17,319 bases of DNA from a virus. Lineage: Duplodnaviria; Heunggongvirae; Uroviricota; Caudoviricetes. Shown in pieces: positions 1-17,319 of this stretch. The stretch lies in IMG/VR virus record IMGVR_UViG_2547132281_000005; one strand, 5' to 3'. The position numbers and the translations under genes were made by a program. The stretch's first letter is position 1; each line of letters starts with the position of its first letter. Below the pieces are notes generated by a model. The model was not told the DNA's origin. It was given only the letters and a program-made list of their open reading frames with translations, and did not search any database.

Positions 1-558
1 ATGAATACAGCTATAACTTTTTCTAACGAGTCACCAAAAGTCTTTTTCAAAGATGGTCGCCTGGTTACCACCTCTCAAGCTGTTGCCGACTACTTCGATA
101 AACAACATAAACACGTTTTAGCTAAGATTGACACACTCGACTGCTCTCCCGAATTTACATCAGCCAACTTTTCGGCCGATGTTCAGACTGTCGAAATTGG
201 CAACGGCGCAGAACGTGAATCACGATGCTACCTGATCACAAAAGACGGCTTCATGTTCCTCGTAATGGGATTTACTGGCAAAAAAGCAGCCAGACTAAAA
301 GAAGCTTACATTGAAAAATTTAACGCAATGGAAGAAGAACTCCACAAACGTCCTCCTGCAGCACAAAACTCCCCCGCCCCAAATAATGGATGCGCATTAC
401 TGATCCACTTCGATAAACACGGTCAGGTCGAGTTCACAGAAAAAGTCCCCGCCGATGCGATGGTATGCACGCTGGAACGGTTTAAATTTTATCTGGAGCA
501 ACATGGGTGGATCGTTGCCCGTAAAGAACAATTGGTGGAAAGGTTGATGCGGTTTTAA
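1..558 (+). CDS. Rha family phage regulatory protein (antirepressor-like)
   Basis: 185-aa ORF with stop TAA at 556-558; N-terminus (VFFKDGRLVTTSQAVADYFDKQHKHVLAKID) matches the Rha-domain pattern as I recall it. The start coincides with the window edge, so upstream context is unseen. Confidence 0.75.
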   Translation: MNTAITFSNESPKVFFKDGRLVTTSQAVADYFDKQHKHVLAKIDTLDCSPEFTSANFSADVQTVEIGNGAERESRCYLITKDGFMFLVMGFTGKKAARLKEAYIEKFNAMEEELHKRPPAAQNSPAPNNGCALLIHFDKHGQVEFTEKVPADAMVCTLERFKFYLEQHGWIVARKEQLVERLMRF

Positions 559-565
559 TGAATGC

Positions 566-598
566 AAAACCCCGGATGATCACCGGGGTTAATTTTAT
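566..598 (+). terminator. Rho-independent terminator after the Rha gene
   Basis: GC stem CCCCGG (570-575) / CCGGGG (583-588) with 7-nt loop, followed by TTAATTTTAT. Confidence 0.6.
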
Positions 599-684
599 CG
601 AGCGTGATTGCCGCTAATCGCCATCGCTCTGATTGAGCGTAAATCATTCAGGTTATTCAGTTCTTCCTTCTGCTCTCGCTGACG

Positions 685-864
685 TCAATAAATCCCATCA
701 TTGCGATCAACCTCATCCTTAACCATTGATGCGAGCAGTTCTTCCAGTTTCTGCGCTGACAGCTTTACCTGGTGATCTTCAGCATCTTCCCGGGCTATTG
801 TGGTTCGCGCAGTGGCTGATTTTGCTGACATCACCACAGGGGGCAGACGGACCATTGAACCATG
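685..864 (-). CDS. Hypothetical small protein (about 56 aa from ATG at 864)
   Basis: Track ORF 685-966 starts at a TTG inside the repeat hairpin. The internal ATG at 864 (MVRLPPVVMSAKS...) has a GGAGG 10 nt upstream, and another ATG lies at 840. No recognisable family. Confidence 0.2.
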   Translation of the reverse strand, partial: HGSMVRLPPVVMSAKSATARTTIAREDAEDHQVKLSAQKLEELLASMVKDEVDRNDGIY

Positions 865-918
865 GCCTCCGGAACAAATAAGGGCAAAAATAACAACCAC
901 TATCGAAAGCTCACAAAC

Positions 919-1135
919 TAACCGCAGCACGTTCCTGCATACGACGTGTCTGCGGCATAATCCCAATGATTACTCCCTGACAGGATTTGCAGGCCACTCA
1001 ATATCAGGTGCAGTTGATGTATCAACACGATTCAACAATACCCGATATTTATTCCATGCCTCCAGCAACGATCTTTCTTCCTCCGTTGCGATTTCCAGAT
1101 CTACAGCATCCTGCAGTGGCGCAATATACTCACTG
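919..1135. repeat. Direct repeat copy A (tfa 3' end plus downstream hairpin)
   Basis: About 217 bp, roughly 85-90% identical by eye to 1969-2185 (constant offset 1050 bp), same orientation. Contains hairpin 922-955 about 15 nt after the tfa-like stop. Confidence 0.7.
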
Positions 1136-1239
1136 AATTCCTGGATGTAGAACTGTGTGGTGACGGTCTTCCAGCCATTCGGCTCCTGCTGTATCGAAGC
1201 ATACCAGGCTATTTCAATATCGCTATGCTGCGGCAGCAT
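970..1239 (-). CDS. Short chimeric tail fibre assembly (Tfa)-like protein, 89 aa
   Basis: C-terminal 52 aa ([52 protein letters not shown]) differ at only 5 positions from the Tfa C-terminus at 2019-2603. N-terminal 36 aa are unrelated. ATG at 1239 is preceded by AAGGGG with a 4-nt spacer. Confidence 0.5.
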
Positions 1240-1295
1240 TTAACCCCTTGTAATTCATCGCCATAATTGATTTAATTCACAAATAAAACTATAAC

Positions 1296-1964
1296 ATGGT
1301 GAAATCAATGAAAAAAAACACAGATGATGGGGCTAAAATTTACACACCACTTACCCTAAAGCTTTATGACTGGTGGGTTTTGGGAGTATCAAATCGGCTT
1401 GCATGGGGATGTCCTACAAAGGAACACCTTCTTCCACACTTTCTGGAACATGTAGGTAACAACCATCTGGATATTGGTGTTGGAACTGGGTTTTACCTTA
1501 CTCACGTACCTGAGAGTAGTCTGATATCTTTAATGGATTTGAACGAAGCTAGCCTGAACGCGGCATCTACAAGGGCTGGGGAATCAAAAATTAAACATAA
1601 AATTAGCCATGATGTTTTTGAACCTTATCCCGCGGCGTTACATGGTCAATTTGATTCCATTTCCATGTTTTACCTTCTTCACTGCCTGCCTGGAAATATA
1701 TCTACAAAAAGCTGTGTAATACGCAATGCGGCGCAGGCCTTAACTGACGATGGAACTCTATACGGAGCCACAATTCTTGGCGATGGAGTTGTGCACAATA
1801 GCTTCGGTCAAAAACTGATGCGCATTTACAATCAGAAAGGCATCTTTTCAAACACAAAAGATTCCGAAGAAGGCTTAACACATATACTCTCAGAGCATTT
1901 CGAGAATGTTAAAACCAAGGTTCAAGGTACTGTAGTAATGTTTTCCGCTTCAGGGAAAAAATAG
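1296..1964 (+). CDS. Class I SAM-dependent methyltransferase (about 220 aa)
   Basis: Motif I LDIGVGTGFYL, acidic residue after beta-2 (MDLN), and later FDSISMFYLLHCLP and LTDDGTLYGATI blocks typical of the Rossmann-fold methyltransferase layout. Alternative start ATG at 1308 has GGTGA 5 nt upstream. Stop TAG at 1962-1964. Confidence 0.7.
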   Translation: MVKSMKKNTDDGAKIYTPLTLKLYDWWVLGVSNRLAWGCPTKEHLLPHFLEHVGNNHLDIGVGTGFYLTHVPESSLISLMDLNEASLNAASTRAGESKIKHKISHDVFEPYPAALHGQFDSISMFYLLHCLPGNISTKSCVIRNAAQALTDDGTLYGATILGDGVVHNSFGQKLMRIYNQKGIFSNTKDSEEGLTHILSEHFENVKTKVQGTVVMFSASGKK

Positions 1965-1968
1965 CATC

Positions 1969-2185
1969 CAACCGCAGCACGTTCTTGCTTAAGACGAGCT
2001 GCGGCATAATCCCAATGATTACTCCCTGACAGGGTTCGTAGGCCACTCAATATCAGGTGCAGTTGATGTATCAACACGGTTCAGCAACACCCGATACTTT
2101 TTCCAGGCTTCCAGCAATGAGGTTTCTTCCTCCGTTGCAATTTCCAGATCTGCAGCATCCTGAAGCGGCGCAATATGCTCACTGG
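1969..2185. repeat. Direct repeat copy B (tfa 3' end plus downstream hairpin)
   Basis: Partner of 919-1135; contains hairpin 1972-2004 immediately after the convergent stops of the methyltransferase and tfa. Confidence 0.7.
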
Positions 2186-2603
2186 CTACCTGCATCAGGT
2201 TGTTTTTTGTTTCTTCCGCCTCCCGGATCCGGAACAGTTTTTCTGCTTCCGTATCCTTCACCCAGGCTGTGCCGTTCCACTTCTGAAACTCCCCTTCCGG
2301 CGATAACCAGGTAACATTTTCCGGTAACGGACCGAGTTCAGAAATAAATAACTCGTCCCCTGACGCTACGTCATAAACCGTTTTACCCCGATGGTCTTCA
2401 ACGAGATGCCACGATGCCTCATCACTGTTGAAAACAGCCACAAAGCCAGCAGGAATATCTGGTGGTGCAATATCGGTACTGTTTGCTGGCAGACCTGTAT
2501 GAGGCGGAATATATGCGTCACCTTCACCAATAAATTCATTAGTTCCGGCCAGCAGATTATAAATTTTTATGGTCCGTGCTTGTTCACTCATTCTGAATGC
2601 CAT
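2019..2603 (-). CDS. tfa: Tail fibre assembly protein Tfa (194 aa)
   Basis: Same length as lambda Tfa (194 aa) and conserved Tfa C-terminal block. Its ATG (2603-2601) overlaps the stop of the upstream fibre ORF in a TAATG arrangement, as in the lambda stf-tfa pair. Confidence 0.85.
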
Positions 2604-3550
2604 TATGCAAGCCTCACAATATAGTTAAATGCGATGTTTTTGACGGTGTTTTCCGCGTTACCCGCAGCGTTAACGGTGATGGTGTGTCCATGTGAACCAA
2701 TCGCAACGGAGTGCGTATGCGCACCAATACCTACAGTATGTGCATGTGCGCCAGAACTTGCTGCAGTACCAGACAGCGAGTGGGTATGAGCACCTGCTGA
2801 CTGTGTCTGAATACGTTGATAATACGATCTATAGGAAGAAGTCTCCGGGCTTACTTGATACTGTGAATTCTGGACATAAGTGAACCCACCGCCATCATAA
2901 AATGCTAACGCAGAACCGCCGCCTCCTGGCCAACGAATACCATTACCATGAGTATGAACACCGGCAGACCCCGTAGAGCCACTCAGACTGTGCGTATGCG
3001 CCCCGGTGTTATTCGTGGATTTAGTGCCGTAATCAAACGACGATGTGGTTTTCGTCCCCAAATCCGTACTGGATGCGCTGGCGCTGTGGGTGTGCGATTT
3101 AATGCCGTCCTGTTCCTGAGACAATACGGCCCGGCCACTGGCGGGTTTGCCCTTGATTGTCCAGCCGCGCATATCTGGAATAACACCTGAAGGATAGGCA
3201 ATAGCCAGTTTCGGATATGCTGCCTTATCAAACGTCTGCCCCTGCATGATTGCATAACCTGCAGGTGGTGTATCTGATGGCCACGGCAGCGGAACACCTG
3301 GCGGAAACGCTTCAATATTTGCCGAGCCGTCAAATTTTACGCCGTTAATTGTCCTTGCAGTTTGCAATTTGGTTGCTGTGCTTGCATTAGTCGAGGCTAA
3401 GGGCTTTTTTAACCTCGCATCCGCGCCTGCGGTAACACTGAATGAGCCATTCGGCCTGTTCTTCAGTGCATGGGGGGTGCTGGTACCAGTCTGACTTAAA
3501 TGCATGAGAATACCGCTCGTGCGTGTGGGCAAGAACGGTCGAATTATCAT
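2603..3550 (-). CDS. stf: Side tail fibre protein, C-terminal fragment (lambda orf-314-like), N-terminally truncated
   Basis: 315-aa ORF rich in G/S/T/A with repeated GAHTHS / HxH motifs and a [13 protein letters not shown] block typical of Stf C-terminal regions. The frame hits a stop at 3602-3604 just upstream and the ATG at 3550 has no RBS, so the N-terminal shaft portion is missing. Confidence 0.6.
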
Positions 3551-3578
3551 GATTGTAATATTTTGCGTTGCGTGCCAT
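3387..3578 (-). CDS. Hypothetical 63-aa protein overlapping the stf fragment in another frame
   Basis: ATG at 3578 preceded by GGAGA with a 6-nt spacer; sequence is not fibre-like ([23 protein letters not shown]...). Could instead be a chance ORF. Confidence 0.35.
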
Positions 3579-3644
3579 CGGTTTTCTCCGGTGGCACGGT
3601 GTTACTCAGCGGGAGTTCAGCCCCGCGCAAGATTGTAGATGAGT

Positions 3645-3896
3645 TTATTCTTCTGAAAAAGCAGAAAAGCCAGCTTTTATTCCGATCTCTTTCAATGCCT
3701 GTAATGAAGTGACAAACTCACCGTCGCGCAAGATAAATCCGTCCGTCACTCGGGCATCCACAAAATTAATTAACGCAGCCCCATTTTTTTGCAAACACAC
3801 AATGCGGTAATGACTAACAATATTTCCATTTTCAACGCACACAGCATAGAGGCCATCTTCACAAAAAATTTTACGCAGTTCTTCGATGTTCATCAT
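3645..3896 (-). CDS. Hypothetical 83-aa protein
   Basis: Tandem ATG ATG at 3896-3891 preceded by GGAAGGA with a 5-nt spacer. No recognisable family. Confidence 0.5.
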   Translation of the reverse strand: MMNIEELRKIFCEDGLYAVCVENGNIVSHYRIVCLQKNGAALINFVDARVTDGFILRDGEFVTSLQALKEIGIKAGFSAFSEE

Positions 3897-4011
3897 CAGA
3901 ATCCTTCCGGATAATTAGCTCTCCCCTTTAAGGGACCATCCCTCTTATCCCTGCGCGCTACTTAAGTATTTTTGATTCTATTCCGGCACCGTCCAGAACT
4001 TCAAACGCGTT

Positions 4012-4043
4012 GAAAATAAAAACAAAAACCCGCCGAAGCGGGT
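4012..4043 (-). terminator. Rho-independent terminator of the hok transcript
   Basis: On the minus strand: stem ACCCGC / GCGGGT (4028-4043) with 4-nt loop, followed by TTTTTGTTTTTATTTT (complement of 4012-4027). Confidence 0.55.
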
Positions 4044-4112
4044 TAAGTGCGGGTGCGTTGAGGATGCCTGCCACATCAGAGGTGGCGAGGGATTTCTCCC
4101 TCGCCGGGTCTC

Positions 4113-4268
4113 TTACTCCTCAGGTTCGTAAGCTGTGAAGACAGCGACCTCCGTCTGGCCGGTTCGGATTCGTACCTCGCAGAGGTCTTTCCTCGTTACC
4201 AGTGCCGTCACTATGACGGTTAAACAGATGACGATCAGGGCGATTAGCATCGCCTTTTGCTGCTTCAT
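4113..4268 (-). CDS. hok: Hok/Gef family type I toxin (51 aa)
   Basis: MKQQKAMLIALIVICLTVIVTALVTRKDLCEVRIRTGQTEVAVFTAYEPEE closely matches the Hok/Gef family as I recall it. ATG at 4268 preceded by GGAGA; stop TAA at 4113-4115. Confidence 0.85.
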   Translation of the reverse strand: MKQQKAMLIALIVICLTVIVTALVTRKDLCEVRIRTGQTEVAVFTAYEPEE

Positions 4269-4325
4269 AGCCTGCTTCTCCTTGCCTTTCGGCACGTAAG
4301 AGGCTAACCTACGTGTGTAGAGCAT
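4113..4325 (-). CDS. mok: Mok (modulator of killing) reading frame, in-frame N-terminal extension of hok
   Basis: 70-aa ORF sharing the stop and frame with hok, as in chromosomal mokC/hokC. Confidence 0.55.
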   Translation of the reverse strand: MLYTRRLASYVPKGKEKQAMKQQKAMLIALIVICLTVIVTALVTRKDLCEVRIRTGQTEVAVFTAYEPEE

Positions 4326-4370
4326 AGGTATGGCCTCAGATTAATGTTAAGCGTCTTGCCGGACGCGTAA
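4295..4370 (+). ncRNA. sok: Putative Sok-like antisense RNA (position inferred, boundaries approximate)
   Basis: Inferred from hok/sok organisation: the antisense RNA should overlap the mok initiation region. A plus-strand hairpin GCGTC-ttgccg-GACGC lies at 4351-4366 but lacks a clean U-run, so the end is uncertain. Confidence 0.25.
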
Positions 4371-4443
4371 TGTTAACTGGGGCTTTTCTCTATCTGCCTT
4401 TGGTGTTGATGCCCGAGGCAGATAGCCTCAAGCACCCGCAGCA

Positions 4444-4472
4444 ATTCTACTTAACTACCGTTACCTCGCCAA
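4444..4472 (-). promoter_or_regulatory. Candidate sigma-70 promoter for the hok/mok mRNA
   Basis: Minus strand reads TTGGCG (complement of 4467-4472), 17-nt spacer, TAGAAT (complement of 4444-4449). A 9-bp stem 4390-4398 / 4417-4425 sits in the predicted 5' leader. Confidence 0.4.
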
Positions 4473-4479
4473 TATGAAA

Positions 4480-4569
4480 TCAATCAGAAAGGTGATCCAT
4501 AAGAACAACAGCAAGACAATAAATTGCCATTACAGCAGCAATAGCCAGCGCACATTTGAGAACCAGCAC
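4480..4569 (-). CDS. Candidate small hydrophobic peptide (29-30 aa, type I toxin-like)
   Basis: AGGAGG (complement of 4575-4580), 5-nt spacer, GTG at 4569; encodes VLVLKCALAIAAVMAIYCLAVVLMDHLSD, then TGA (4482-4480). The DNA here is TGY-repetitive and open in several frames, so this may be chance. Confidence 0.25.
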   Translation of the reverse strand: MLVLKCALAIAAVMAIYCLAVVLMDHLSD

Positions 4570-4947
4570 CACAACCTCCTGTATTGGACGTACACCAGTC
4601 CTGATAAATATGAGGCTGTCTCGTCAGTGATTCAATACAACTACTGGGTATAGTTTCTATGATTTTGTTCTGTGGAAATGGAAAACAGCAACCAGTCACC
4701 ACCAGCACTTCTTTAAACATGCCAAGTCACACGCAAGCCAACATTATAGTTCCCTTTGAGCGAGCAGATGAAGCTAGCAAAAATATTGATCACTTAGGAT
4801 GCATTACTAACGTTGCTATGTGTTAACGAACAGGGAGTGGGTCATCAGCATAAATATTTATGCAGTAGGTTTCTTTTAGGACTAGATTAATCAAAAACAT
4901 TTAGATAAAATTATAAAATCAAGAAATTGGTGGCAATTAATCTTTAA

Positions 4948-4976
4948 TTGTGCCAGCTGAATTTCGTTATTATAGA
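4948..4976 (+). promoter_or_regulatory. Candidate promoter for the membrane-protein/methyltransferase operon
   Basis: TTGTGC (4948-4953), 17-nt spacer, TATAGA (4971-4976) in an AT-rich region upstream of the GGAGAG SD and ATG at 5011. Confidence 0.3.
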
Positions 4977-5326
4977 AGATTAGCTTTTTTTTGAATGTTT
5001 GGAGAGTAAAATGTTAGAACCACCAAAGAGTTATAATGAAATGTTGCCTATGCTCCATAAGGCGACTTTTATTACTACATTTATATTTTACCTATCATTA
5101 GTCATTTATGGCTACATGCCATTGGTTGGCATTAATGCCAAGTATATCCCCCCCGTTAAAGACTACGAGGAATTTATTAAATGGATATTAACCTTTGGCA
5201 TATTACCAATTGCATCTTCAGTTTTTTGGTCAGTAATTAGTGGAGCTTTAGATCTACATAATAATGTAGCAAAAATTATTGGAATAAGGAAGATGTGGGA
5301 TAGTCATTTAATTATTAAACCATTAG

Positions 5327-6521
<1,195 letters not shown>

Positions 6522-6911
6522 TTAGCAAAAATTGCAGGCGTTACGAGAAAATTAACTACTGATGAATCTCACAAGGTAATGAGTAAACTGTATTACCCAG
6601 AAGTTAAAGAGTTAAAAGACAAACATTACGTTGAACTTTTCTGGAACAAAGTTTATTACTTTTGGGTTTTCTTTGAACATACAGTAATCGCATTTGTTAC
6701 TATTTTAATAATAAGTATCGCCAAATTAACAAATATATTCTCTGTTACTGGCTCTTTAATTAATCTTTGGTTGTGGATTATTTCTCTTGTCGCATTTGAC
6801 TTCCTTATTTTCATAGCATCAGTTAAACCAAGAACAGAAAGCCAAGTAAGACAAATACCTGATAGCAAAATAAAAGAATTCTTTAACAATAACAATATTT
6901 TTTAAACGAGG

Positions 6912-7571: not shown

Positions 7572-7885
7572 TTTATTTCAACAAATTATTAGAAAGAGTG
7601 ATTTGCTTGTTAATTATTAGCTCGGCAGTGCCGGATCAACATGACCCTGCCACTTAGGCCATTGCCGGTTTACCTACTTTTGTAAGGTTCAGCATGAAGT
7701 TTTTATATACTCTTCCTAATATCAATAGTGATGCTCGCTTATGTTAGCTGCTTCTTGTACATAGTAGCCTTCTCCGACAGTACTGCAATGAGCGGAGAGT
7801 AAAAGTCGATAAACAATAAGGAGGTTCACAATAAATATTTCTCGGTGAAACTTTCAAAGCATTCTCTGTTTTGCTAAATCGACAA

Positions 7886-8785: not shown

Positions 8786-9037
8786 AGCTAATAATCCTTT
8801 TCAATGAAGCTGGAGGTGTGTTTAACTATTAGTTAAATTTCTATTTTTATAGAAACAAGCTTTACAACTTCATCAAAGTTTCTCAAATCCTAATCCACTT
8901 TGCAAATCCACTAACCATGCTGAATGCTTTCTGTTGTTAAACATATCCGCTGCTGGCACCAAGCAGACAAACACACTAACTCTACCCTACTCCACAAAAG
9001 AGCCAATCAATATCTGAACTAATAAACTTTAATCTCA

Positions 9038-9460: not shown

Positions 9461-9500
9461 AAGTCCCCCTTAAAATTACCTCATGACCTGAAATCAAAAC

Positions 9501-10520: not shown

Positions 10521-10968
10521 TTGCTTTTTCTATAAGTTCGTCAGTTTCACGATCCACTACGGCAGGATCAGCAAAAAGCAGTCCGGACTCCACCACATCG
10601 CCATATTCTTTGTTTAACCCGGCGATCATGTACGTGATGCTTTTTCCGTCACTAATTTCACGATACAACCTGAAATCATTAATCCGGATAGCCTCCATAA
10701 TTGCAGGCACTAGCGCCGTGAACTTTTCACGCTTATCCCTGGTGTCGATAGCCTTCCAGCGTTCGAATATCTTCACTCGATTAACGCCAAGCGCTCGCTG
10801 ATCAACCGCGCCACCTTCATCTGTGACACGCTGAACATCGATGTTCGGGCGCTCTTTCAAAGCCCAGAATGCTTCAGTGATTAATATCGTCGCCTGCTCC
10901 TGTGTCATTCCTGGTCGACATATCCAGGCATCCAGAGCCTCACGAGCCTGTTCAGGAGTGATTTTCAT
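10447..10968 (-). CDS. Hypothetical 173-aa protein in the cII / YdaT position
   Basis: Lies between the Cro-like gene and the replication gene on the same strand and overlaps the Cro-like stop by 17 nt. Family assignment is positional only. Confidence 0.55.
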   Translation of the reverse strand: MKITPEQAREALDAWICRPGMTQEQATILITEAFWALKERPNIDVQRVTDEGGAVDQRALGVNRVKIFERWKAIDTRDKREKFTALVPAIMEAIRINDFRLYREISDGKSITYMIAGLNKEYGDVVESGLLFADPAVVDRETDELIEKAIAFKLAYRQQYQQKAGWNYEPSFC

Positions 10969-11179
10969 TGTTCAACCGCCCCGCCCGCTTCGTCTTACGA
11001 TATTCGTCATAAACCTTGGGATCATACAGAAGCTCGCCGCCAGATGCCTCCTGTAGACGCATCGCGCGACCTTCAGGAACTAGCTCTTGCCATTGAGAAA
11101 CAGCAGATGGGTCAACGCCAGCAGCTTTCGCTACTTTGGCTTTCGTACCGTAAAAATTAATTACGTCTGATTTAAACAT
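10952..11179 (-). CDS. Cro-like / YdaS-like HTH regulator (about 75 aa)
   Basis: ATG at 11179 preceded by GGAGG (complement of 11184-11188) with a 4-nt spacer; HTH segment TKAKVAKAAGVDPSAVSQW; divergent from the repressor gene. Confidence 0.65.
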   Translation of the reverse strand: MFKSDVINFYGTKAKVAKAAGVDPSAVSQWQELVPEGRAMRLQEASGGELLYDPKVYDEYRKTKRAGRLNNENHS

Positions 11180-11191
11180 CGCACCTCCAAT

Positions 11192-11207
11192 ATTGAGTTT
11201 TCTCAAT
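11192..11207. promoter_or_regulatory. Palindromic operator candidate in the divergent repressor/cro promoter region
   Basis: Perfect 16-bp palindrome ATTGAGTTTTCTCAAT; the same TTGAGTTTTCTCA core recurs twice at 11729-11778. Confidence 0.45.
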
Positions 11208-11664
11208 GCTAATCACTCAAGGAATCTCAAGTCAAGGATTATTAAGATATCTAAATATGAACGAGAAAACTTTAGGTCAACGCATTAGAGAAAGACGTAA
11301 GCAGGTAGGCTTAAGTCAAAACGGTTTAAGCAAAGCTGCTGGCGTATCTGGCTCATCAATTTCATTATGGGAAAGTGACCATACAGCCCCGCGCGGGCAA
11401 AATTTGCATCGCCTCGCCGAGGTATTGCAATGTTCACCAACCTGGATACTGTTTGGCGACGAGGACAAAACACCAGCTCCCCCTGTTTCACTCGATAGTA
11501 CCCTAGACTTATCGGAAGATGAGTTAGAGATGCTGCGTTTGTATCGCGCACTTCCTAAATCAGAGCAACAAGCACAACTCAGCGAACTCCGCGCCCGCGT
11601 TGAGAATTTTAATCGCCTGTTCACCGAGCTATTAGAGGCTCGCAAACGCAACAAGCATCAATAA
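11206..11664 (+). CDS. cI/C2-like prophage repressor, N-terminal HTH (XRE family), no S24 peptidase domain
   Basis: From the internal ATG 11257 the protein starts MNEKTLGQRIRERRKQVGLSQNGLSKAAGVSGSSISLWE, like the P22 C2 / RacR-type N-terminus as I recall it. Either 11206 or 11257 may be the start; both lack a strong SD (possibly leaderless). Confidence 0.8.
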   Translation: MLITQGISSQGLLRYLNMNEKTLGQRIRERRKQVGLSQNGLSKAAGVSGSSISLWESDHTAPRGQNLHRLAEVLQCSPTWILFGDEDKTPAPPVSLDSTLDLSEDELEMLRLYRALPKSEQQAQLSELRARVENFNRLFTELLEARKRNKHQ

Positions 11665-11728
11665 TCATCCCTTCACAAAATTTTAAAGCCTTACATTTCA
11701 ATGTATTGGCTTTATCTTGCGCCAACAC

Positions 11729-11780
11729 TTGAGTTTTCTCATCAAAAAACCTTGACGAAAAATAATGAGAAAACTAAATT
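11729..11780 (+). promoter_or_regulatory. Candidate early-left promoter flanked by operator half-sites
   Basis: TTGACG (11752-11757), 17-nt spacer, TAAATT (11775-11780), bracketed by the inverted repeat TTGAGTTTTCTCAT (11729-11742) / ATGAGAAAACT (11765-11775). Confidence 0.4.
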
Positions 11781-11856
11781 ACCTCCATCAACACACCGCA
11801 CGGTGTTCTCCGCAAACAGTTCCGCTACCCCGGCGTTAAGGGGAAATGAGGTCAGC

Positions 11857-12012
11857 ATGGATACTATCGATCTTGGCAACAACGAATCTCTGGTGTACGG
11901 CGTGTTTCCAAACCAGGACGGCACGTTCACCGCAATGACGTATACCAAAAGCAAAACGTTTAAAACCGAAAATGGTGCCCGTCGCTGGCTGGAAAGAAAC
12001 TCAGGTGAGTGA
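11857..12012 (+). CDS. Hypothetical 51-aa protein (YdaF-like position and size)
   Basis: ATG 11857 with GAGG 5 nt upstream; MDTIDLGNNESLVYGVFPNQDGTFTAMTYTKSKTFKTENGARRWLERNSGE; stop TGA 12010-12012. Confidence 0.55.
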   Translation: MDTIDLGNNESLVYGVFPNQDGTFTAMTYTKSKTFKTENGARRWLERNSGE

Positions 12013-12013
12013 T

Positions 12014-12142
12014 ATGGATTTCGACACAATCATGGAAAAGGCTTACGAAGAATACTTCGAAGGCCTTGCCGAAGGCGAAGAAGCTCTCAGCTTCAGTGAG
12101 TTTAAACAGGCGCTTTCCAGCTCGGCAAAATCTAACGGCTGA
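12014..12142 (+). CDS. Hypothetical 42-aa acidic protein (YdaG-like position and size)
   Basis: ATG 12014 two nt after the upstream stop, with AGGTGA 5 nt upstream; MDFDTIMEKAYEEYFEGLAEGEEALSFSEFKQALSSSAKSNG. Not in the ORF track because it is under 60 aa. Confidence 0.4.
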   Translation: MDFDTIMEKAYEEYFEGLAEGEEALSFSEFKQALSSSAKSNG

Positions 12143-12171
12143 TAAGCGAAGCAGCACCGCGAGGAATCAGT

Positions 12172-12390
12172 ATGCAGAAACGAGAACCCGTCATCATCGC
12201 GCCAGACTATACCGATGATGAACTTTATGAGTGGATGCACCAGAAAATTAATGCAGCGCAGGATCTGAAATGGGCCAATGAAGCCAGGGCTAAGCAGGCT
12301 GAAAATCTGTCCGCTCTGGAGCAGGATATCACTAATCTGGAAAAAGCAGCGGCATTAAGCATTGCCAGAATGATTACATACCCGCGTTAA
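12172..12390 (+). CDS. Hypothetical 72-aa protein
   Basis: ATG 12172 with GAGGAA 5 nt upstream; stop TAA 12388-12390. Confidence 0.6.
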   Translation: MQKREPVIIAPDYTDDELYEWMHQKINAAQDLKWANEARAKQAENLSALEQDITNLEKAAALSIARMITYPR

Positions 12391-12393
12391 TAG

Positions 12394-12791
12394 CTAACCA
12401 ACGAAGCTAAGGTTGGTAATTAAGGAGTTCTCCACGGATGAGGTGGAGTGCGTGCGCCGGACACGGGTGAGCATCCGGCACAGACAGTTTACTGAAAGGA
12501 TATTTCCCTGAAAGGTCAGACCATAACGCGAAAGCGCACGGCGAGGTAGCTGGTTCATAGATAGCCTGTCGTTAAATTTTCGTCGACCGTGCGCTTCCGG
12601 TTGTGGCAATCCGCGAAATGGCGCGGCGGTGAGTATGGCGGGGTTATTCCTTCCCCGTTGAGGACACCGGGTTGTCAGGTTGACCATACGCTTAAGTGAC
12701 AACCCCGCTGCAACGCCCTCTGTTATCAATTTTCTGGTGACGTTTGGCGGTATCAGTTTTACTCCGTGACTGCTCTGCCGCCCTTTTTAAA
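12394..12791 (+). ncRNA. GC-rich structured non-coding region (candidate ncRNA or structured leader), strand assumed from the flanking operon
   Basis: No plausible ORF on either strand. Consecutive perfect stems: ACCAAC/GTTGGT (12397-12417), CTCCAC/GTGGAG (12430-12448), GCCGGA/TCCGGC (12456-12479), CGC-GAAA-GCG (12527-12536), GCGCACGG/CCGTGCGC (12534-12594), CCGCG/CGCGG (12611-12626), CGGGG/CCCCG (12639-12657), GGGTTGTCA/TGACAACCC (12669-12705), and GGCGG...CCGCC followed by CTTTTT (12746-12788). Confidence 0.3.
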
Positions 12792-12795
12792 GTGA

Positions 12796-12937
12796 ATTTT
12801 GTGATGCGGTGAATGCGGCTGAGCGCACGCGGAACAGTTAAAACCAAAAACAGTGTTATGGGTGGATTCTCTGTATCCGGCGTTAATTGTTAACTGGTTA
12901 ACGTCACCTGGAAGCACCAGGCACCGCATCACAAAAT
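12796..12937. repeat. Perfect 16-bp inverted repeat pair bracketing about 110 bp
   Basis: ATTTTGTGATGCGGTG (12796-12811) and its exact reverse complement CACCGCATCACAAAAT (12922-12937); interior carries GTTAAC-tg-GTTAAC palindromic sites. Confidence 0.5.
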
Positions 12938-12957
12938 TCATTGTTGAGGACGCGATA

Positions 12958-13146
12958 ATGGAAACGTTATTACCAAACGTTAATACGTCTGAAGGTTGTT
13001 TTGAAATTGGTGTCACTATCAGTAACCCTGTATTTACTGAAGATGCCATTAACAAGAGAAAACACGAACGGGAGCTATTAAATAAAATATGCATTCTTTC
13101 AATGTTGGCCCGTTTACGTCCGATACAAAAAGGATGCTGGCAATGA
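12958..13146 (+). CDS. Hypothetical 62-aa protein
   Basis: ATG 12958 with GAGGA 7 nt upstream; its stop TGA (13144-13146) overlaps the next ATG in an ATGA arrangement. Confidence 0.45.
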   Translation: METLLPNVNTSEGCFEIGVTISNPVFTEDAINKRKHERELLNKICILSMLARLRPIQKGCWQ

Positions 13147-13334
13147 ATACAGCATTTGCACTTGTTCTGACAGTTTTTCTTGTTTCCGGAGAGCCAGTTG
13201 ATATTGCAGTCAGTGTTCACAGGACAATGCAGGAGTGTGTGACTGCAGCAACCGAACAGAAAATTCCCGGTAACTGTTACCCGGTCGATAAAGTTATTCA
13301 CCAGGATAATAACGAAATCCCGGCAGGTCTTTAA
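13143..13334 (+). CDS. Small exported protein candidate (63 aa, N-terminal hydrophobic signal-like segment, two Cys)
   Basis: ATG 13143 with AAAGGA 8 nt upstream; MNTAFALVLTVFLVSGEPVDIAVSVHRTMQECVTAATEQKIPGNCYPVDKVIHQDNNEIPAGL. Confidence 0.5.
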   Translation: MNTAFALVLTVFLVSGEPVDIAVSVHRTMQECVTAATEQKIPGNCYPVDKVIHQDNNEIPAGL

Positions 13335-13426
13335 AACAGTTCCGTAATAAACATCCGATTTCATTCTTATATGCCAGCAATGGCAGGGATTTGTTCACCC
13401 TTAAATCTGTAATGAGGTAAAACAAA

Positions 13427-15898
13427 ATGAGTAAAGTCTTTATTTGCGCCGCCATTCCGGACGAACAGGCAATAAAGGAAGAAGGTGCCGTCGCTGTAGC
13501 CACTGCCATTGAAGCCGGTGATGAACGTCGCGCCCGCGCAAAATTTCACTGGCAATTCCTGGAACATTATCCGGCTGCTCAGGACTGCGCTTATAAATTT
13601 CTTGTTTGCGAGGATAAACCCGGTATACCCCGCCCTGCCCTCGATTCCTGGGATGCTGAATATATGCAGGAAAACCGCTGGGATGAGGCGTCTGCTTCCT
13701 TTGTCCCGGTCGAGACTGAATCCGATCCGATGAACGTCACTTTTGACAACCTAGCCCCTGAAGTACAGAACGCTGTCATGGTTAAGTTCCACACATGTGA
13801 AAAAATCACTGTTGATATGGTGATTAGCGCACAGGAATTGTTGCAGGAAGACATGGCAACATTCGACGGCCATATCGTTGAAGCGTTGATGAAAATGCCA
13901 GAAGTTAACGCTATGTATCCGGAGCTTAAGCTGCATGCCATCGGGTGGGTTAAGCATAAATGTAAGCCTGGTGCCAAATGGCCCGAAATTCAGGCAGAGA
14001 TGCGCATCTGGAAAAAACGTCGCGAAGGTGAACGCAAGGAAGCCGGAAAATACACGTCTGTTGTTGATCTCGCCCGCGCCAGAGTCAATCAACAGCACAC
14101 TGAAAATTCAACAGGAAAAATCAACCCGGTCATTGCTGCCATTCATCGCGAATACAAGCAGACATGGAAAACACTGGATGACGAACTGGCCTACGCTCTC
14201 TGGCCTGGTGATGTGGATGCCGGAAACATTGACGGCAGCATCCATCGCTGGGCAAAAAATGAAGTTATCGACAACGACCGCGAAGACTGGAAGCGTATCT
14301 CGGCATCAATGCGCAAACAGCCTGATGCCCTTCGCTACGACCGCCAGACTATTTTTGGCCTTGTCCGTGAACGTCCGATCGACATTCACAAAGACCCTGT
14401 GGCACTGAACAAATACATTACTGAATACCTGACTACAAAGGGCGTGTTTGAAGATGAAGGAAGAAATCAGAGCGCAACTGATACTCTCTCGTCGCCAGTA
14501 CCAGAAACTGATGCAGTGGAAACGGCAATTCCGGACAACGAAAAAACCGAATGCAAAGTGGAAGTCGAACCATCTGTAGAGCGTGAGGGGCCGTTCTACT
14601 TCCTCTTCACCGACAAGGATGGCGAAAAATACGGTCGCGCAAACAAACTTTCTGGTCTGGATAAGGCGCTGGCTGCCGGGGCAACTGAAATCACGAAAGA
14701 AGAATATTTTGCCCGCAAAAACGGCACATACACAGGTTCACAACAAAATACTGATGCATCTGACACGACCGCACAACCAGACCTGGTAAAAGTTACCGCT
14801 GACGAAGTAAACAAAATTATGCAGGCAGCCAGTATCAGCCAGCCTGACGCTAATAAGTTGCTCGCTGCATCACGTGGTGAATTTGTTGAAGGGATTAGCG
14901 ACCCGAATGATCCGAAATGGGTGAAGGGGATTGAAACCCGCGATTCTGTGCACCAGAACCAGTCAGAAACGGAACAGTACGACCAAAAAGCGGAACAAAA
15001 CAGCCAAAATGCGTTACAAAACGAGCCAGAAACGAAACAACCTGAACCAGTCGTGCAACAGGAAGAGGAAAAAGTTTGTACCGCATGCAATCAGACTGGT
15101 GGTGGTAACTGCCCTGATTGTGGCGCAGTGATGGGTGACGCAACCTACCAGGAGACATTCAACGAAGAAAGCCAGGATGAAGCCCGGGAAAAAGATCCAG
15201 AGGAAATAGAAAATGCCGGACTCCCGAACAAGGAGTGCACCGAAGGCGATCAACATGCCAATGACAATAATGAAATAGGCGAGACAGCAAATCCCTTAAT
15301 TAAGGTGAACAGTCATCGTAAAAGCACATCCACCAGCAGGTTGTGGCACCATCTGATGATTGACCTTGAAACCATGGGAAAAAATCCTGATGCCCCGATT
15401 ATCTCAATAGATGCAATATTTTTCGATCCGCAAACCGGAGATATGGGACCGGAATTTAGTAAGACTATCGATCTGGAAACTGCTGGCGGAGTCATTGATC
15501 GTGACGTCATTAAAAGGTGGCTGAAGCAATCACGTGAAGCGCAGTCTGCCATTATGACCGATGAAATCCCGTTAGATGATGCACTGTTACAATTGCGGGA
15601 ATTTATCGACGAAAACTCCGGTGAATTTTTTGTTCAGGTCTGGGGAAATGGAGCCAACTTCGAAAACACGATTTTGCGCCGTTCATACGAACGGCAGGGG
15701 ATCCCCTGCCCATGGCGTTACTACAACGATCGCGATGTACGCACAATCGTTGAGCTGGGGAAAGCCATAGACTTCGATGCCAGAACGGCTATTCCATTCG
15801 AAGGTGAGCGCCATAATGCACTTGATGACGCCCGTTACCAGGCAAAATACGTTTCAGTTATCTGGCAAAAACTGATCCCGAATCAGGCTGATTTTTAA
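13427..15898 (+). CDS. Large multidomain protein (823 aa) with C-terminal DnaQ/Orn-like DEDDh 3'-5' exonuclease domain
   Basis: ATG 13427 with GAGG upstream. Central acidic/Gln-rich linker and CxxC-x9-CxxC zinc-ribbon-like motif (CTACNQTGGGNCPDCG, about 15076-15123). C-terminal about 185 aa (15341-15895) carry MIDLETMG (Exo I), VWGNGANFENTIL (Exo II-like) and HNALDDARYQAKY (Exo III). Confidence 0.85.
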   Translation: MSKVFICAAIPDEQAIKEEGAVAVATAIEAGDERRARAKFHWQFLEHYPAAQDCAYKFLVCEDKPGIPRPALDSWDAEYMQENRWDEASASFVPVETESDPMNVTFDNLAPEVQNAVMVKFHTCEKITVDMVISAQELLQEDMATFDGHIVEALMKMPEVNAMYPELKLHAIGWVKHKCKPGAKWPEIQAEMRIWKKRREGERKEAGKYTSVVDLARARVNQQHTENSTGKINPVIAAIHREYKQTWKTLDDELAYALWPGDVDAGNIDGSIHRWAKNEVIDNDREDWKRISASMRKQPDALRYDRQTIFGLVRERPIDIHKDPVALNKYITEYLTTKGVFEDEGRNQSATDTLSSPVPETDAVETAIPDNEKTECKVEVEPSVEREGPFYFLFTDKDGEKYGRANKLSGLDKALAAGATEITKEEYFARKNGTYTGSQQNTDASDTTAQPDLVKVTADEVNKIMQAASISQPDANKLLAASRGEFVEGISDPNDPKWVKGIETRDSVHQNQSETEQYDQKAEQNSQNALQNEPETKQPEPVVQQEEEKVCTACNQTGGGNCPDCGAVMGDATYQETFNEESQDEAREKDPEEIENAGLPNKECTEGDQHANDNNEIGETANPLIKVNSHRKSTSTSRLWHHLMIDLETMGKNPDAPIISIDAIFFDPQTGDMGPEFSKTIDLETAGGVIDRDVIKRWLKQSREAQSAIMTDEIPLDDALLQLREFIDENSGEFFVQVWGNGANFENTILRRSYERQGIPCPWRYYNDRDVRTIVELGKAIDFDARTAIPFEGERHNALDDARYQAKYVSVIWQKLIPNQADF

Positions 15899-15962
15899 TG
15901 TTCAACCCCGGTCGTTGCCCACCAGCTATAGTGGCGGCGACCATGATTAGCGAACGACGCTC

Positions 15963-16211
15963 ATGGCAAGACTTATTCTGCTCACTGAGTGGGCAAAAGA
16001 GGAATTCAGTGAACCGGTCCCAACTCCGAGTACGTTAAGTAAATACGCTAAAGCCGGAATGATATTTCCTCTCCCCAAAAAAGTTGGAAGACGCTGGCGA
16101 GTGGATCCGCAAGCTCGCTTTGTCGGAATGGTAAACAAGCCGGAGGTGATCGCCACAGATCACCCTGCTTTGAAGAGGATACTGGAAGATGGCGCGCCCG
16201 CGAAAATATAA
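15963..16211 (+). CDS. xis: Excisionase (Xis)-like protein, 82 aa
   Basis: Small basic protein immediately upstream of and overlapping the integrase start; KYAKAGMIFPLPKKVGRRWRV resembles excisionase-type DNA-binding motifs. Confidence 0.7.
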   Translation: MARLILLTEWAKEEFSEPVPTPSTLSKYAKAGMIFPLPKKVGRRWRVDPQARFVGMVNKPEVIATDHPALKRILEDGAPAKI

Positions 16212-17319
16212 AACCAATGTTCCGGGATTATCTCCTTATTTTGACAAAAGAAATAACAAAGTTTACTGGCGTTACAGGCATCCCATAACAGGCAAAAATC
16301 ACGGTCTCGGCAGTATTGACCAGAAACTGGCAGAAACTATTGCAGCAGAAGCGAACAGCCGTCTTGCCCGGCAGCAAATGGAACAAATGCTCAGTCTGCA
16401 GGAGAAAATTATTAGTGATACCGGCGGTTCATCAACCGTTACCATTTTTCTGAATAATTACAGAAAAATTCAACAGGAAAGATATGAAAACGGCGAGATC
16501 AAACTCAACACGCTGAAACAGAAAGCGGCCCCTCTCAGGGTATTTGATGAACGTTTTGGCACCAGACCGTTAGATGCCATAACCGTAAAAGATGTGGTAT
16601 CAGTACTGGAAGAGTACAAGGCCAGAGGACATAACAGAATGGGACAAATTTTCAGGAAGGTACTGATCGATGTTTTCCGGGAAGCTCAGCAAACGGGCGA
16701 TGTCCCGCCAGGCTTTAACCCTGCAGAATCGGCAAAAAAACCGCAGGTGCGGATATCAAGACAGCGACTGACTTTTGATGAGTGGATGATGATTTATAAC
16801 GCAGCGGAAAAGGATGGTTACTTTTTACAGCGCGGTATGCTGCTGGCACTGATGACAGGCCAGCGCCTTTCAGATATTTGCAAAATGCAATTTTCGGATA
16901 TCCGGGATGGTTATCTTCATGTCGAACAGCAAAAAACAGGAACCCGGATTGCCATCCCTCTGGCTCTGCGTTGCGATAAATTAAATCTCACCCTGGATGA
17001 TGTAGTGTCATCCTGCCGCGATTGTGTTCTTAGTCCGTGGCTATTGCACCACCATCACGCGAAAGGGACAGCTAAGCGCGGCGGGATGGTTAAGCCAGCA
17101 ACATTAACCGTTGCATTTAAAAAAGCCCGGGATTCTGTGGATTACAACTGGCGTGCTAATGGCACCCCACCCTCTTTCCATGAGCAGAGATCTTTATCAG
17201 AGCGATTGTTCAGAGAGCTGGGGGTTGATACCAAAATTTTGCTAGGCCATTCGAATCAAAAAATGACCGATATTTACAACGATGTACGCGGTAAGGAGTG
17301 GAAAAAACTGGTCATTTGA
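16189..17319 (+). CDS. int: Lambda-family tyrosine integrase (376 aa)
   Basis: N-terminal arm-binding motif LSPYFDKRNNKVYWRYRHPITGKNHGLG parallels lambda Int (LPPNLYIRNNGYYCYRDPRTGKEFGLG); C-terminus LLGHSNQKMTDIYNDV carries the catalytic Tyr region. Stop TGA is the last codon of the window. Confidence 0.9.
   Translation: MARPRKYKTNVPGLSPYFDKRNNKVYWRYRHPITGKNHGLGSIDQKLAETIAAEANSRLARQQMEQMLSLQEKIISDTGGSSTVTIFLNNYRKIQQERYENGEIKLNTLKQKAAPLRVFDERFGTRPLDAITVKDVVSVLEEYKARGHNRMGQIFRKVLIDVFREAQQTGDVPPGFNPAESAKKPQVRISRQRLTFDEWMMIYNAAEKDGYFLQRGMLLALMTGQRLSDICKMQFSDIRDGYLHVEQQKTGTRIAIPLALRCDKLNLTLDDVVSSCRDCVLSPWLLHHHHAKGTAKRGGMVKPATLTVAFKKARDSVDYNWRANGTPPSFHEQRSLSERLFRELGVDTKILLGHSNQKMTDIYNDVRGKEWKKLVI

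Follow-up and report, generated by a model that had tools for sequence, protein, structure and literature searches.

The stretch of DNA analysed here (hereafter the window; 17,319 nucleotides in full) holds integration, immunity and replication genes of a lambdoid prophage together with a truncated tail-fibre gene, and raises the question of why this particular set of genes is left. The initial annotation answered that the element is a domesticated remnant, shaped by selection on accessory or defence functions. A domesticated prophage, as Bobay et al. 2014 are said to use the term, is one retained by selection.

The window represents a lambdoid prophage that is defective and belongs to the PPompW type, a widespread type integrating at ompW; it comes from the lineage of enterotoxigenic E. 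coli (ETEC) TW14425. It is 100% identical to its source contig (AELE01000002.1, ETEC TW14425) and covers about 96% of an 18-kb prophage (attL to attR) lying between yciE and ompW. The reconstructed order of the TW14425 locus is trpA-yciG-yciF-yciE, ompW' (attL), ash, the window, ompW (attR) and yciC-yciB-yciA-tonB. Both att sites, which lie outside the window, could be located. The attR site is the ompW 3' end beyond int, starting 44 bp past the window edge, and attL is an ompW-like fragment of 128 bp that lies between yciE and ash; an ompW fragment has been called as a gene in locus L004. The 128-bp fragment aligns with the ompW 3' end 44-186 bp past int, with 94-96% identity at both ends of the duplication. 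The features that mark a PPompW prophage were all found: insertion in the ompW 3' end, a fragment of which is displaced to the other side of the prophage (att of about 121 bp), an integrase and an excisionase of the intE/xisE type, and a lambda-like modular order, the retained part of which is syntenic with 14EC017, PPompW_132418 and mEp460.

The genes from the replication module to the integrase are as follows.

9038-9460, minus strand: DUF977/LygF (Pfam DUF977; 93% amino acid identity to the mEp460_ev081 counterpart)
9501-10466, minus strand: O-like initiator, 321 aa (96.6% amino acid identity to the mEp460_ev081 counterpart)
10447-10968, minus strand: YdaT-family protein (Pfam YdaT_toxin)
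10952-11179, minus strand: DicC/Cro-like protein (Pfam P22_Cro)
11257-11664, plus strand: DicA-type repressor (NCBIfam DicA, E=1.5e-71)
11857-12012, plus strand: ydfA, dicBF operon
12014-12142, plus strand: ydfB, dicBF operon
12172-12390, plus strand: ydfC, dicBF operon
12732-12783, plus strand: DicF sRNA (Rfam, 76.7 bits against a gathering score of 48)
12958-13146, plus strand: dicB, dicBF operon (Pfam DicB)
13143-13334, plus strand: ydfD, dicBF operon
13427-15898, plus strand: early-operon exonuclease, 823 aa (YdfE_N/YdfE_C regions and an Rv2179c-like 3'-5' exonuclease domain, Pfam PF16473, E=1e-60)
15963-16211, plus strand: excisionase (Pfam Exc; 100% amino acid identity to PPompW_132418 xisE)
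16189-17319, plus strand: lambda-type tyrosine integrase (Pfam Arm-DNA-bind_1, Phage_integrase; 99.2% amino acid identity to PPompW_132418 intE)

The xis and int genes lie at the right edge, and a DicA/DicC-type immunity region is present (10952-11664), both as initially annotated. The immunity proteins (10447-11664) share 99-100% amino acid identity with those of mEp460_ev081. The succession of dicA, ydfABC, and then DicF, dicB and ydfD is that of a Qin-type dicBF region, and the operon (11857-13334) shows Pfam DicB, DUF1391 and DUF1482 matches and 96.3% nucleotide identity to K-12 Qin. Other readings of this region had to be revised. The replication module, regarded as partial, is the same two-gene module (O-like and DUF977/LygF) as in the isolated phage mEp460_ev081, and an iteron array (the origin; 10007-10145, spacing 23 bp) is kept inside the O-like gene. 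Loss of a helicase loader had also been claimed; the mEp460 relative is likewise without one, and the claim was therefore rejected. The exonuclease fusion, which had been counted as cargo, is a standard early gene of 823 aa, found at the corresponding place in mEp460 (91% identity) and in intact relatives.

Neither the window nor its flanks in the reconstructed TW14425 locus contained genes for head, tail, terminase, lysis or Q. Structural genes just outside the window, the finding that by the initial annotation would have refuted it, were thus not seen. The lambda cos 12-mer is absent from the window, where a single one-mismatch match, a chance one, lies inside IS5. The reported lack of head, tail-shaft, terminase and lysis genes extends as far as the att sites. 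The late genes are not hidden nearby, because only ash (276 nt, the sole gene separating Rha from attL) and the att copies belong to the element outside the window; the rest of the flanks is host genes. Since the window and its flanks lack the genes indispensable for lysis, packaging and virion assembly, and since cos and Q are also absent, the prophage is defective.

The way in which the late genes were lost was analysed on the basis of the PPompW copy of E. coli 14EC017 (NZ_CP024134.1, 2,760,450-2,815,260, 54.7 kb), which was taken as the state before the loss. In BLAST comparisons, window positions 1-3389 are 100% identical to this prophage, and positions 3388-5326 and 6522-17319 are 99.9% identical to it. 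In this one prophage, the stretches matched by the two halves lie 37,924 bp from each other. The features up to the junction are as follows.

1-558, plus strand: Rha-family regulator, 185 aa, at the attL-proximal end (Pfam PF09669, E=3e-27; 100% identical to 14EC017)
595-873, minus strand: DUF4376 pseudogene fragment (14EC017 RefSeq annotation mapped by 100% identity)
970-1146, minus strand: tail-fibre-assembly fragment, second tfa (14EC017 RefSeq annotation mapped by 100% identity)
1296-1964, plus strand: class I SAM-dependent methyltransferase, 222 aa, a moron flanked by the tfa copies (Pfam Methyltransf_12/23/25)
2019-2603, minus strand: intact tail fibre assembly protein, 194 aa (Pfam Caudo_TAP, E=2e-44)
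2603-3389, minus strand: 3' part of the side tail-fibre gene stf, 262 of 1,008 codons (100% identity to 14EC017 stf as far as the junction; Pfam Collar, Phage_fiber)
3388-3389, no strand: deletion junction, a 2-bp 'ta' microhomology common to both parental sequences (read directly; BLAST coordinates)

The missing interval runs from within the side tail-fibre gene to the small gene beside rem. According to the 14EC017 annotation, it contains lom, J, tail, head, portal and terminase genes, lysis genes (holin, lysozyme and Rz), three tRNAs, a DNA methyltransferase, Q, RusA and DUF968, as well as an accessory SASA esterase and a beta/sce7726 pair; the lambda cos 12-mer was also found there. The 14EC017 prophage, although 99.9-100% identical to the window on each side of the junction, differs in that it carries this 37.9-kb late region, has a 231-aa cargo gene whole and without IS5, and carries an ISEc23 plus an IS3 that sits in its small terminase gene. 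Since two IS elements lie inside the deleted interval of the 14EC017 copy, the size of the ancestor can be taken from it approximately. Rha and a fragmentary tail-fibre end are present as had been described, the latter as the 3' fragment (2603-3389), the intact tfa gene and the second tfa fragment. The two fragments at 595-1146 are older debris; both are present in the undeleted 14EC017 too. An Rfam match to IS009 was observed at 2062-2260, within the intact tfa gene.

The junction is followed by small genes and the cargo (moron) block.

3388-3578, minus strand: hypothetical gene cut by the deletion, 5' 63 of 92 codons (maps to 14EC017 WP_001515373.1)
3645-3896, minus strand: rem, 83 aa (RefSeq annotation of the relative; Pfam Rem; 96% nucleotide identity to K-12 Qin)
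4113-4437, minus strand: hokD toxin gene and hok leader/sok region (CDS 4113-4268; mok-like frame to 4325; leader/sok 4263-4437; Pfam HOK_GEF; Rfam RF01794, 115 bits)
5011-6905, plus strand: predicted membrane protein gene, 231 aa, split by IS5 (parts 5011-5326 and 6522-6905; whole in 14EC017 as WP_000892866.1)
5327-6521, minus strand: IS5, 1,195 bp (BLAST break points, ends read directly; transposase 5473-6453, Pfam DDE_Tnp_1)
6918-7571, plus strand: class I SAM-dependent methyltransferase, 217 aa (Pfam Methyltransf_12/23, TehB)
7886-8785, minus strand: SMEK-domain protein, 299 aa (PF21941, E=2e-22; NF033859, E=5e-31; PADLOC Aga_REase, E=1e-20)

The IS5 element is of canonical length and is flanked by a 4-bp target duplication, 'ttag' (5323-5326 and 6522-6525). 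The interrupted 231-aa membrane protein showed no family match in Pfam, NCBIfam or PADLOC. The hok gene noted before is hokD, with an Rfam sok match, and the two methyltransferases noted before are both class I SAM-dependent enzymes, the 217-aa one being encoded in a moron of low GC content (31-35%). A match to a DNA methyltransferase family (N6_N4, Dam, Dcm) was seen for neither. All NCBIfam matches are under the cut-off, those of the 222-aa protein (1296-1964) being weak matches to small-molecule methyltransferases only. A restriction-modification or anti-restriction role was therefore rejected, the models matched being generic class I SAM ones (Methyltransf_12/23/25, TehB-like). The true DNA methyltransferase of the prophage lay in the deleted segment. 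The 299-aa gene, described as an orphan, belongs to the SMEK-domain family PF21941/NF033859, with 108 homologue clusters across Proteobacteria. Its product has a predicted nuclease-type N-terminal domain and an uncharacterised C-terminal half, and its homologues in other bacteria are placed among defence-type genes. A conserved operon of membrane protein, methyltransferase and SMEK genes was considered and discarded, since the neighbours of the homologues in Pseudomonas, Cupriavidus, Vibrio and Citrobacter are unrelated. The supposed enrichment for cargo did not hold: every accessory gene that was retained is found at the corresponding position of the undeleted relative, and there were accessory genes in the deleted segment too.

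It should be considered that the junction might be a mis-join in a draft genome, the late genes being really present. The source is indeed a draft assembly, and the junction was found in none of 5,426 complete E. coli genomes; an exact 38-mer across it gave no match in the GTDB species representatives, among which the source genome is not included. The junction, however, lies in unique sequence without any repeat, the shared stretch being only 2 bp. Gene callers join the stf stump across it into a chimeric 300-aa ORF (2603-3505). In a look-up by exact protein, this form, which uses the second Met start, was matched, and the 315-aa form is not on record. The exact 300-aa ORF occurs in about 26 assembly blocks, which come from independent NCBI and Logan assemblies made in different projects, in contigs of up to 643 kb. 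A mis-join is therefore rejected, and we give it practically no weight. Another explanation is a phage satellite of the PICI type, namely a dedicated mobile island with int, repressor and replication genes that is packaged by a helper phage. The int/xis pair, the repressor/cro pair, the initiator with iterons, the lack of capsid genes and the size of about 18 kb match such an island superficially. Both sides of a single junction, however, are collinear with a full-length prophage at 99.9-100% identity, stumps of the tail-fibre and hypothetical genes remain at that junction, cos has gone with the deletion, and no capsid-redirection or helper-interference genes were detected with Pfam, NCBIfam or PADLOC. 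The collinearity, the stumps and the missing cos led us to set the satellite aside as highly improbable.

The explanation by domestication requires a closer look. According to it, the host lineage would keep beneficial genes (DicA immunity, DicB/DicF, hok/sok, the methyltransferases and SMEK), and selection would have purged the lysis and morphogenesis genes. Across E. coli, the early regions of PPompW are generally better conserved and the late regions variable (PMC8112680), and the dicBF region shares 96% identity with its counterpart in K-12 Qin, for which host effects are documented: DicB gives protection from infection by phages, and stress tolerance is helped by cryptic prophages (PMC6832061, PMC3105296). 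The defence-type surroundings of SMEK homologues and the persistence of the deleted form in a sampled ETEC lineage point in the same direction. The single contiguous deletion, however, accounts for the whole pattern, and it also removed accessory genes (lom, the DNA methyltransferase, the tRNAs, the SASA esterase and the beta/sce7726 pair). Long retention was not seen, since no complete genome has the junction and only near-identical assemblies carry it. The window differs from undeleted or sister copies by 0-9 substitutions per 11-15 kb, some of them clustered like recombination patches, and this divergence is therefore too low for dN/dS or dating; with 0-7 substitutions against undeleted copies, no selection signal can exist yet. 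Nor has the cargo been kept intact. The 231-aa gene is split by IS5 in the window and, independently, by IS1 in strain 14EC047, and in the sister isolate SRR33774643 an IS5-adjacent deletion took the rest of this gene, the methyltransferase and the SMEK gene. The cargo module is present in 150 genomes, against 1,720 of the 5,426 complete E. coli genomes that carry the same xis-int. Other PPompW remnants keep other parts: B-1109 retains lysis genes and Q and has lost Rha and ash, and in ERZ1309437 the whole early region is gone and int now adjoins late genes. Domestication is thus improbable. What stands of the initial annotation is a remnant devoid of morphogenesis and lysis genes out to the att sites; selection on accessory or defence functions found no support, given the one deletion, the absence from complete genomes, the low divergence and the decay of the cargo. 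Some benefit of the retained genes to the host is possible. It might also be proposed that the gene for the SMEK protein of about 300 aa, located in the variable moron slot that separates the replication genes from hok, acts on its own as a nuclease-type gene against phages or for their exclusion. Combined with DicB and with homo-immunity through DicA, it would turn the non-lytic, excisable remnant into a net defence asset for the ETEC lineage, and the repeated IS hits in the 231-aa gene would be selection against a toxic partner. We regard this proposal as rather doubtful.

These facts make it very probable that a common PPompW-type prophage lost its late region in one deletion of about 38 kb and received an IS5 insertion, which is ordinary prophage decay. 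The retained gene content would be set by where the deletion fell and not by gene-by-gene selection, because the deletion is single and contiguous and the survivors are what lay outside its 37.9-kb interval. The full-length ancestor at ompW would have been about 50-55 kb. Illegitimate recombination at the 2-bp microhomology probably removed the whole late half (about 38 kb) in one step, and with it DUF968, RusA, the Q antiterminator, the DNA methyltransferase, the tRNAs, holin, lysozyme, Rz, cos, terminase and all head and tail genes. IS5 may have entered the 231-aa cargo gene after or before the deletion. The remainder of about 18 kb would be the contiguous early region and the moron block beyond the tail fibres. 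In this remainder, the DicA-type repressor presumably holds both early operons silent, and host cell lysis, packaging and particle formation would no longer be possible for the element. As int, xis, both att copies and the O-like initiator with its iterons are kept, the element probably excises, and perhaps replicates transiently, once derepressed. Host effects, if any, would arise only as side effects of ordinary phage genes, the candidates being homo-immunity to mEp460-like phages, DicB/DicF effects, stabilisation by hok/sok and possibly the SMEK protein.

The junction-bearing assembly blocks are 99.94-100% identical to the window wherever they overlap it, and the deleted form was sampled repeatedly, from a 1996 isolate through recent read sets. 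Given this repeated sampling, the deleted form is at least stable. As judged from flanks 99.9-100% identical to the undeleted copy, and from a junction seen in no complete genome, the deletion appears to be recent and lineage-restricted.

It is worth noting that the loss of morphogenesis genes recurs in independent remnants (B-1109 and K-12 Qin) and that early regions are better kept (PMC8112680), observations that we count against neutral decay alone. Selection, either against lysis or in favour of functions of the early region, could lie behind the recurrent loss of late regions, beyond neutrality alone.

The locus provides a base-pair-resolved case of the 'grounding' of a lambdoid prophage by one microhomology deletion and an IS insertion, and otherwise amounts to little beyond bookkeeping. 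It also gives a caution, namely that an apparent enrichment for cargo can come from one deletion, with no selection needed. The sole lead to follow, in our view, is the uncharacterised SMEK-domain family, whose genes travel in defence islands and in the moron slots of phages.

Degraded PPompW prophages have been described before (Nakamura et al. 2021, PLoS Pathog, PMC8112680). PPompW was found in 44% of 767 complete genomes, with all copies appearing defective, and the PPompWs of two O145:H28 strains were excised after mitomycin C and not packaged (PMC8112680). The window element shares with PPompW (e.g. PPompW_132418, LC567822) the site at the ompW 3' end with a duplicated segment of about 121-128 bp, the early order of dicA/dicC, two replication genes, moron slot, hok, rem, ydfU, rusA and Q, and membership in a family described as universally defective, with variable and deleted late regions. 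The O145:H28 copies, however, keep most of the late region (44 kb), all of which is missing from the window element. Their moron slot between DUF977 and hok holds Paa/AdfO, whereas that of the window holds the membrane protein, methyltransferase and SMEK genes. A further difference is that no type III effector locus was seen at the attL end of the window element. The replication initiator is a different allele from that of PPompW_132418, with no BLASTP match between the two.

K-12 Qin (Kim) is, like the window element, a lambdoid remnant with a truncated stf plus tfa. The two share ydfA-ydfB-ydfC-dicF-dicB-ydfD and the start of ydfE at 96% nucleotide identity, rem-hokD at 96% and the tfa/stf 3' end at 95%; dicA is a diverged allele without a nucleotide match. 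Qin lies at ydfJ, its integrase has decayed and its ydfE is disrupted by IS2, whereas the window has an intact int, an intact xis and the whole 823-aa exonuclease. Qin retains Q and the lysis cassette and has lost its replication genes, and the window element is the reverse. Phage mEp460_ev081 (LR597641; 45.9 kb, deposited as the complete genome of a phage) has the same order of DicA-like, DicC-like, YdaT-like, O-like and LygF/DUF977 genes, with proteins 93-100% identical, the 823-aa exonuclease at 91% identity, and hok and rem after the moron slot. It differs in its integrase and attachment site, in its moron-slot gene and in its full late region, and it shows the module set in the undeleted state.

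The window was compared by megablast with 5,426 complete E. coli genomes. Positions 1-3389 matched one prophage of strain 14EC017 at 100% identity, and positions 3388-17319, excluding IS5, matched the same prophage at 99.9% identity; the two matching places in this prophage are 37,924 bp apart. The 14EC017 prophage is an undeleted member of PPompW, the family of lambda-like E. coli prophages inserted at ompW. Reading of the three sequences showed that the junction (3388/3389) is clean. Since the parental sequences have just the dinucleotide "ta" in common there, illegitimate recombination appears to have produced the deletion. The IS5 is 1,195 bp long, with a target duplication "ttag". A map of the window was built from six-frame ORFs, Pfam, NCBIfam and Rfam:

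1-558, Rha regulator
595-1146, old tail-fibre-assembly and DUF4376 fragments
1296-1964, class I SAM methyltransferase (222 aa)
2019-2603, intact tail-fibre assembly gene (tfa)
2603-3389, side-tail-fibre gene, last 262 codons
3388-3578, small gene, 63-codon stump
3645-3896, rem
4113-4437, hokD with Rfam sok match
5011-5326 and 6522-6905, predicted membrane-protein gene (231 aa), interrupted by IS5
5327-6521, IS5
6918-7571, second class I methyltransferase
7886-8785, SMEK-domain protein, 299 aa
9038-9460, DUF977/LygF
9501-10466, O-like initiator
10447-10968, YdaT-family protein
10952-11179, DicC/Cro
11257-11664, DicA-type repressor
12732-12783, DicF sRNA, preceded by ydfA, ydfB and ydfC and followed by dicB and ydfD
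13427-15898, exonuclease, 823 aa
15963-16211, xis
16189-17319, int

No tRNA genes were found in the window. The GC content is 31-35% at 6.5-9 kb vs about 47% in the rest, as expected for a moron (an accessory gene block). Within the tfa gene, Rfam IS009 matches over its full length (225 bits; 2062-2260, minus strand). The tfa 3' end is present in two copies of 89% identity, one in the old fragment (920-1135) and one in the intact gene (1970-2184), flanking the 222-aa methyltransferase. This duplication is a footprint of past tail-fibre module exchange, and the undeleted relative has both copies too.

According to the 14EC017 annotation, the absent interval holds the 5' three-quarters of the tail-fibre gene, lom, J, the entire tail module, the head, portal and terminase genes, a beta-family/sce7726 gene pair, Rz, lysozyme, holin, SASA esterase, three tRNAs, a DNA methyltransferase, Q, RusA and DUF968; two IS elements within it are private to 14EC017. 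In the relative, this interval contains the lambda cohesive-end 12-mer, which is missing from the window; the sole near-match there (one mismatch, inside IS5) is due to chance.

When two ORFs specific to the junction were looked up as exact proteins, about 26 assembly blocks proved to have the same arrangement. Among them, AELE01000002.1 (GCA_000166615.2; from ETEC strain TW14425, a 1996 isolate from Guinea-Bissau, PMC4309559) was 100% identical to the window across the 15,364 bases fetched, and the whole TW14425 locus was reconstructed from two joined pieces of it. The left flank runs trpA-yciG-yciF-yciE, a 128-bp ompW-like fragment and ash (276 nt) to the window; on the right, intact ompW is followed by yciC, yciB, yciA and tonB. 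The ompW-like fragment, 457-584 bp left of position 1, is attL, and the 3' end of ompW, 44-186 bp past int, is attR. Between its att copies the element thus measures about 18 kb, of which ash alone falls outside the window. The initial annotation had proposed a remnant devoid of structural and lysis genes, with att sites to be sought outside the window. Both sites were located, and the flanks out to them carry no structural or lysis genes. We therefore concluded that the element is truly a remnant. Another contig, LRLS01000281.1 (GCA_001911255.1), is 100% identical to the window from 2041 rightwards; to the left it has another integrase and a DinI gene, adjoining a Dus-family (PF01207) gene and dnaB. 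Either two prophages recombined at the tfa 3' end, which is repeated, or the contig is chimeric.

It had also been proposed that the remnant was domesticated, with cargo selectively kept. All retained accessory genes, however, occupy the same positions in undeleted 14EC017, and the deletion took accessory genes too. The junction was found in none of the 5,426 complete genomes, 1,720 of which have xis-int of this type; the low-GC cargo module occurs in just 150. Just 2-7 substitutions in 10.8-12.7 kb separate undeleted copies from the window, and 9, in three tight clusters, separate a sister assembly with the same deletion. With so few substitutions, the deletion should be recent, and dN/dS has no power. 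The 231-aa gene was disrupted twice independently, by IS5 in the TW14425 lineage and by IS1A in 14EC047 (locus positions 1190-2362), which could reflect an A+T-rich target preference or selection for its inactivation. In SRR33774643, a Logan read set of the same lineage with the 38-kb deletion and IS5, a further IS5-adjacent deletion (6522-8975) fuses the IS5 end straight to 8976 and eliminates the methyltransferase and SMEK genes along with what remained of the membrane gene.

Different parts survive in other remnants of this prophage type. B-1109, like the other top matches with its coordinates and 98.7% identity, among which it was the one inspected, has lost the stretch from stf through Nu1 and kept Q and lysis genes; it also lacks Rha and ash. 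The ompW-site remnant ERZ1309437 (ENA, NODE_57) shows the opposite pattern to the window: the whole early region from xis through Q is gone, int sits beside an N6_N4 DNA methyltransferase that is truncated, and the genes retained are SASA esterase, holin, lysozyme and Rz, with fragments of Nu1, lom and a tail fibre. On the side of some benefit stand the repeated sampling of the deleted form and the greater conservation of early over late regions reported for PPompW, whose copies in phylogroup A are strongly degraded (Nakamura et al., PMC8112680). Also favouring some benefit, ydfABC-dicF-dicB-ydfD is 96% identical to that of Qin, the cryptic prophage of K-12; DicB has been reported to shield K-12 from phage infection (PMC6832061), DicF to govern both metabolism and the division of cells (PMC5069750), and cryptic prophages to help with stress tolerance (PMC3105296). 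Taken together, the evidence leans against domestication, which is a hypothesis at best.

Several genes counted as lost or as cargo also read differently. The replication module had been called partial but is complete: Escherichia phage mEp460_ev081, which has a full late region, shows the identical early-right order (DicC-like, YdaT-like, O-like, LygF/DUF977, one variable gene, hok, rem, ydfU, rusA, Q) at 93-100% protein identity, and its deposited genome likewise has no DnaC/P-type loader. The O-like gene retains five or six iterons at 23-bp spacing followed by an A+T-rich stretch, presumably the replication origin. The iterons (10007-10145; consensus about CATyGGGyCATTTTGAmCyGATG) are dyad-symmetric, and a short A+T-rich repeat pair follows them (9965-10003). 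The supposed exonuclease fusion is an ordinary early-left gene of equal length in relatives and mEp460, of which K-12 ydfE is a decayed remnant. Neither methyltransferase in the window matched a DNA methyltransferase family in Pfam or NCBIfam; the true DNA methyltransferase of the prophage was lost in the deletion.

The 299-aa gene, described as an orphan, is not one: it encodes PF21941 and NF033859 SMEK domains. The literature describes SMEK as a nuclease domain that partners short Argonautes (PMC10810196), and the protein matches the PADLOC "Aga_REase" model; its C-terminal half matched no family. Homologues of about 300 aa with a SMEK_N domain (108 clusters) make up a family found across the Proteobacteria. 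They range from Enterobacteria to Pseudomonas, Xanthomonas, Cupriavidus and Vibrio, and elsewhere adjoin Lamassu-like (LmuB_C/CTD7/MC3), AAA_15/AAA_21, Abi_alpha, SLATT (SLATT_5) and SymE toxin genes. Their neighbours vary by genome, with no conserved partner. Such defence-island-like but changing surroundings suggest a stand-alone defence gene, and these proteins are plausible candidates for single-gene defence.

As for likely behaviour, the DicA-type repressor would silence the dicC-side and dicB-side operons. Since Q, lysis, cos and structural genes are lost, derepression would yield neither lysis nor particles. In the PPompW family, members of which excised after mitomycin C in two O145:H28 strains (PMC8112680), int and xis match those here at 99-100% identity. 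Since both att copies are present and neither the initiator nor the origin is damaged, the element should remain able to excise, perhaps with transient replication. It should also confer homo-immunity against mEp460-type phages.

Among known systems, the PPompW prophages, K-12 Qin and phage mEp460 come closest. Degraded PPompW prophages have already been described, and the element is therefore not novel in kind. It is a defective, ompW-integrating lambdoid prophage with a Qin-type dicBF region; it is neither a PICI-type satellite nor a carrier of intact retained cargo, and the hallmarks of domestication that could be assessed are lacking. The dicBF operon and dicC side are 96-98% identical to those of Qin, whereas, in the comparison of window 11083-11785 with Qin, the dicA repressor gene itself has no nucleotide match. 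This mismatch in an otherwise common region looks like a swap of immunity specificity.
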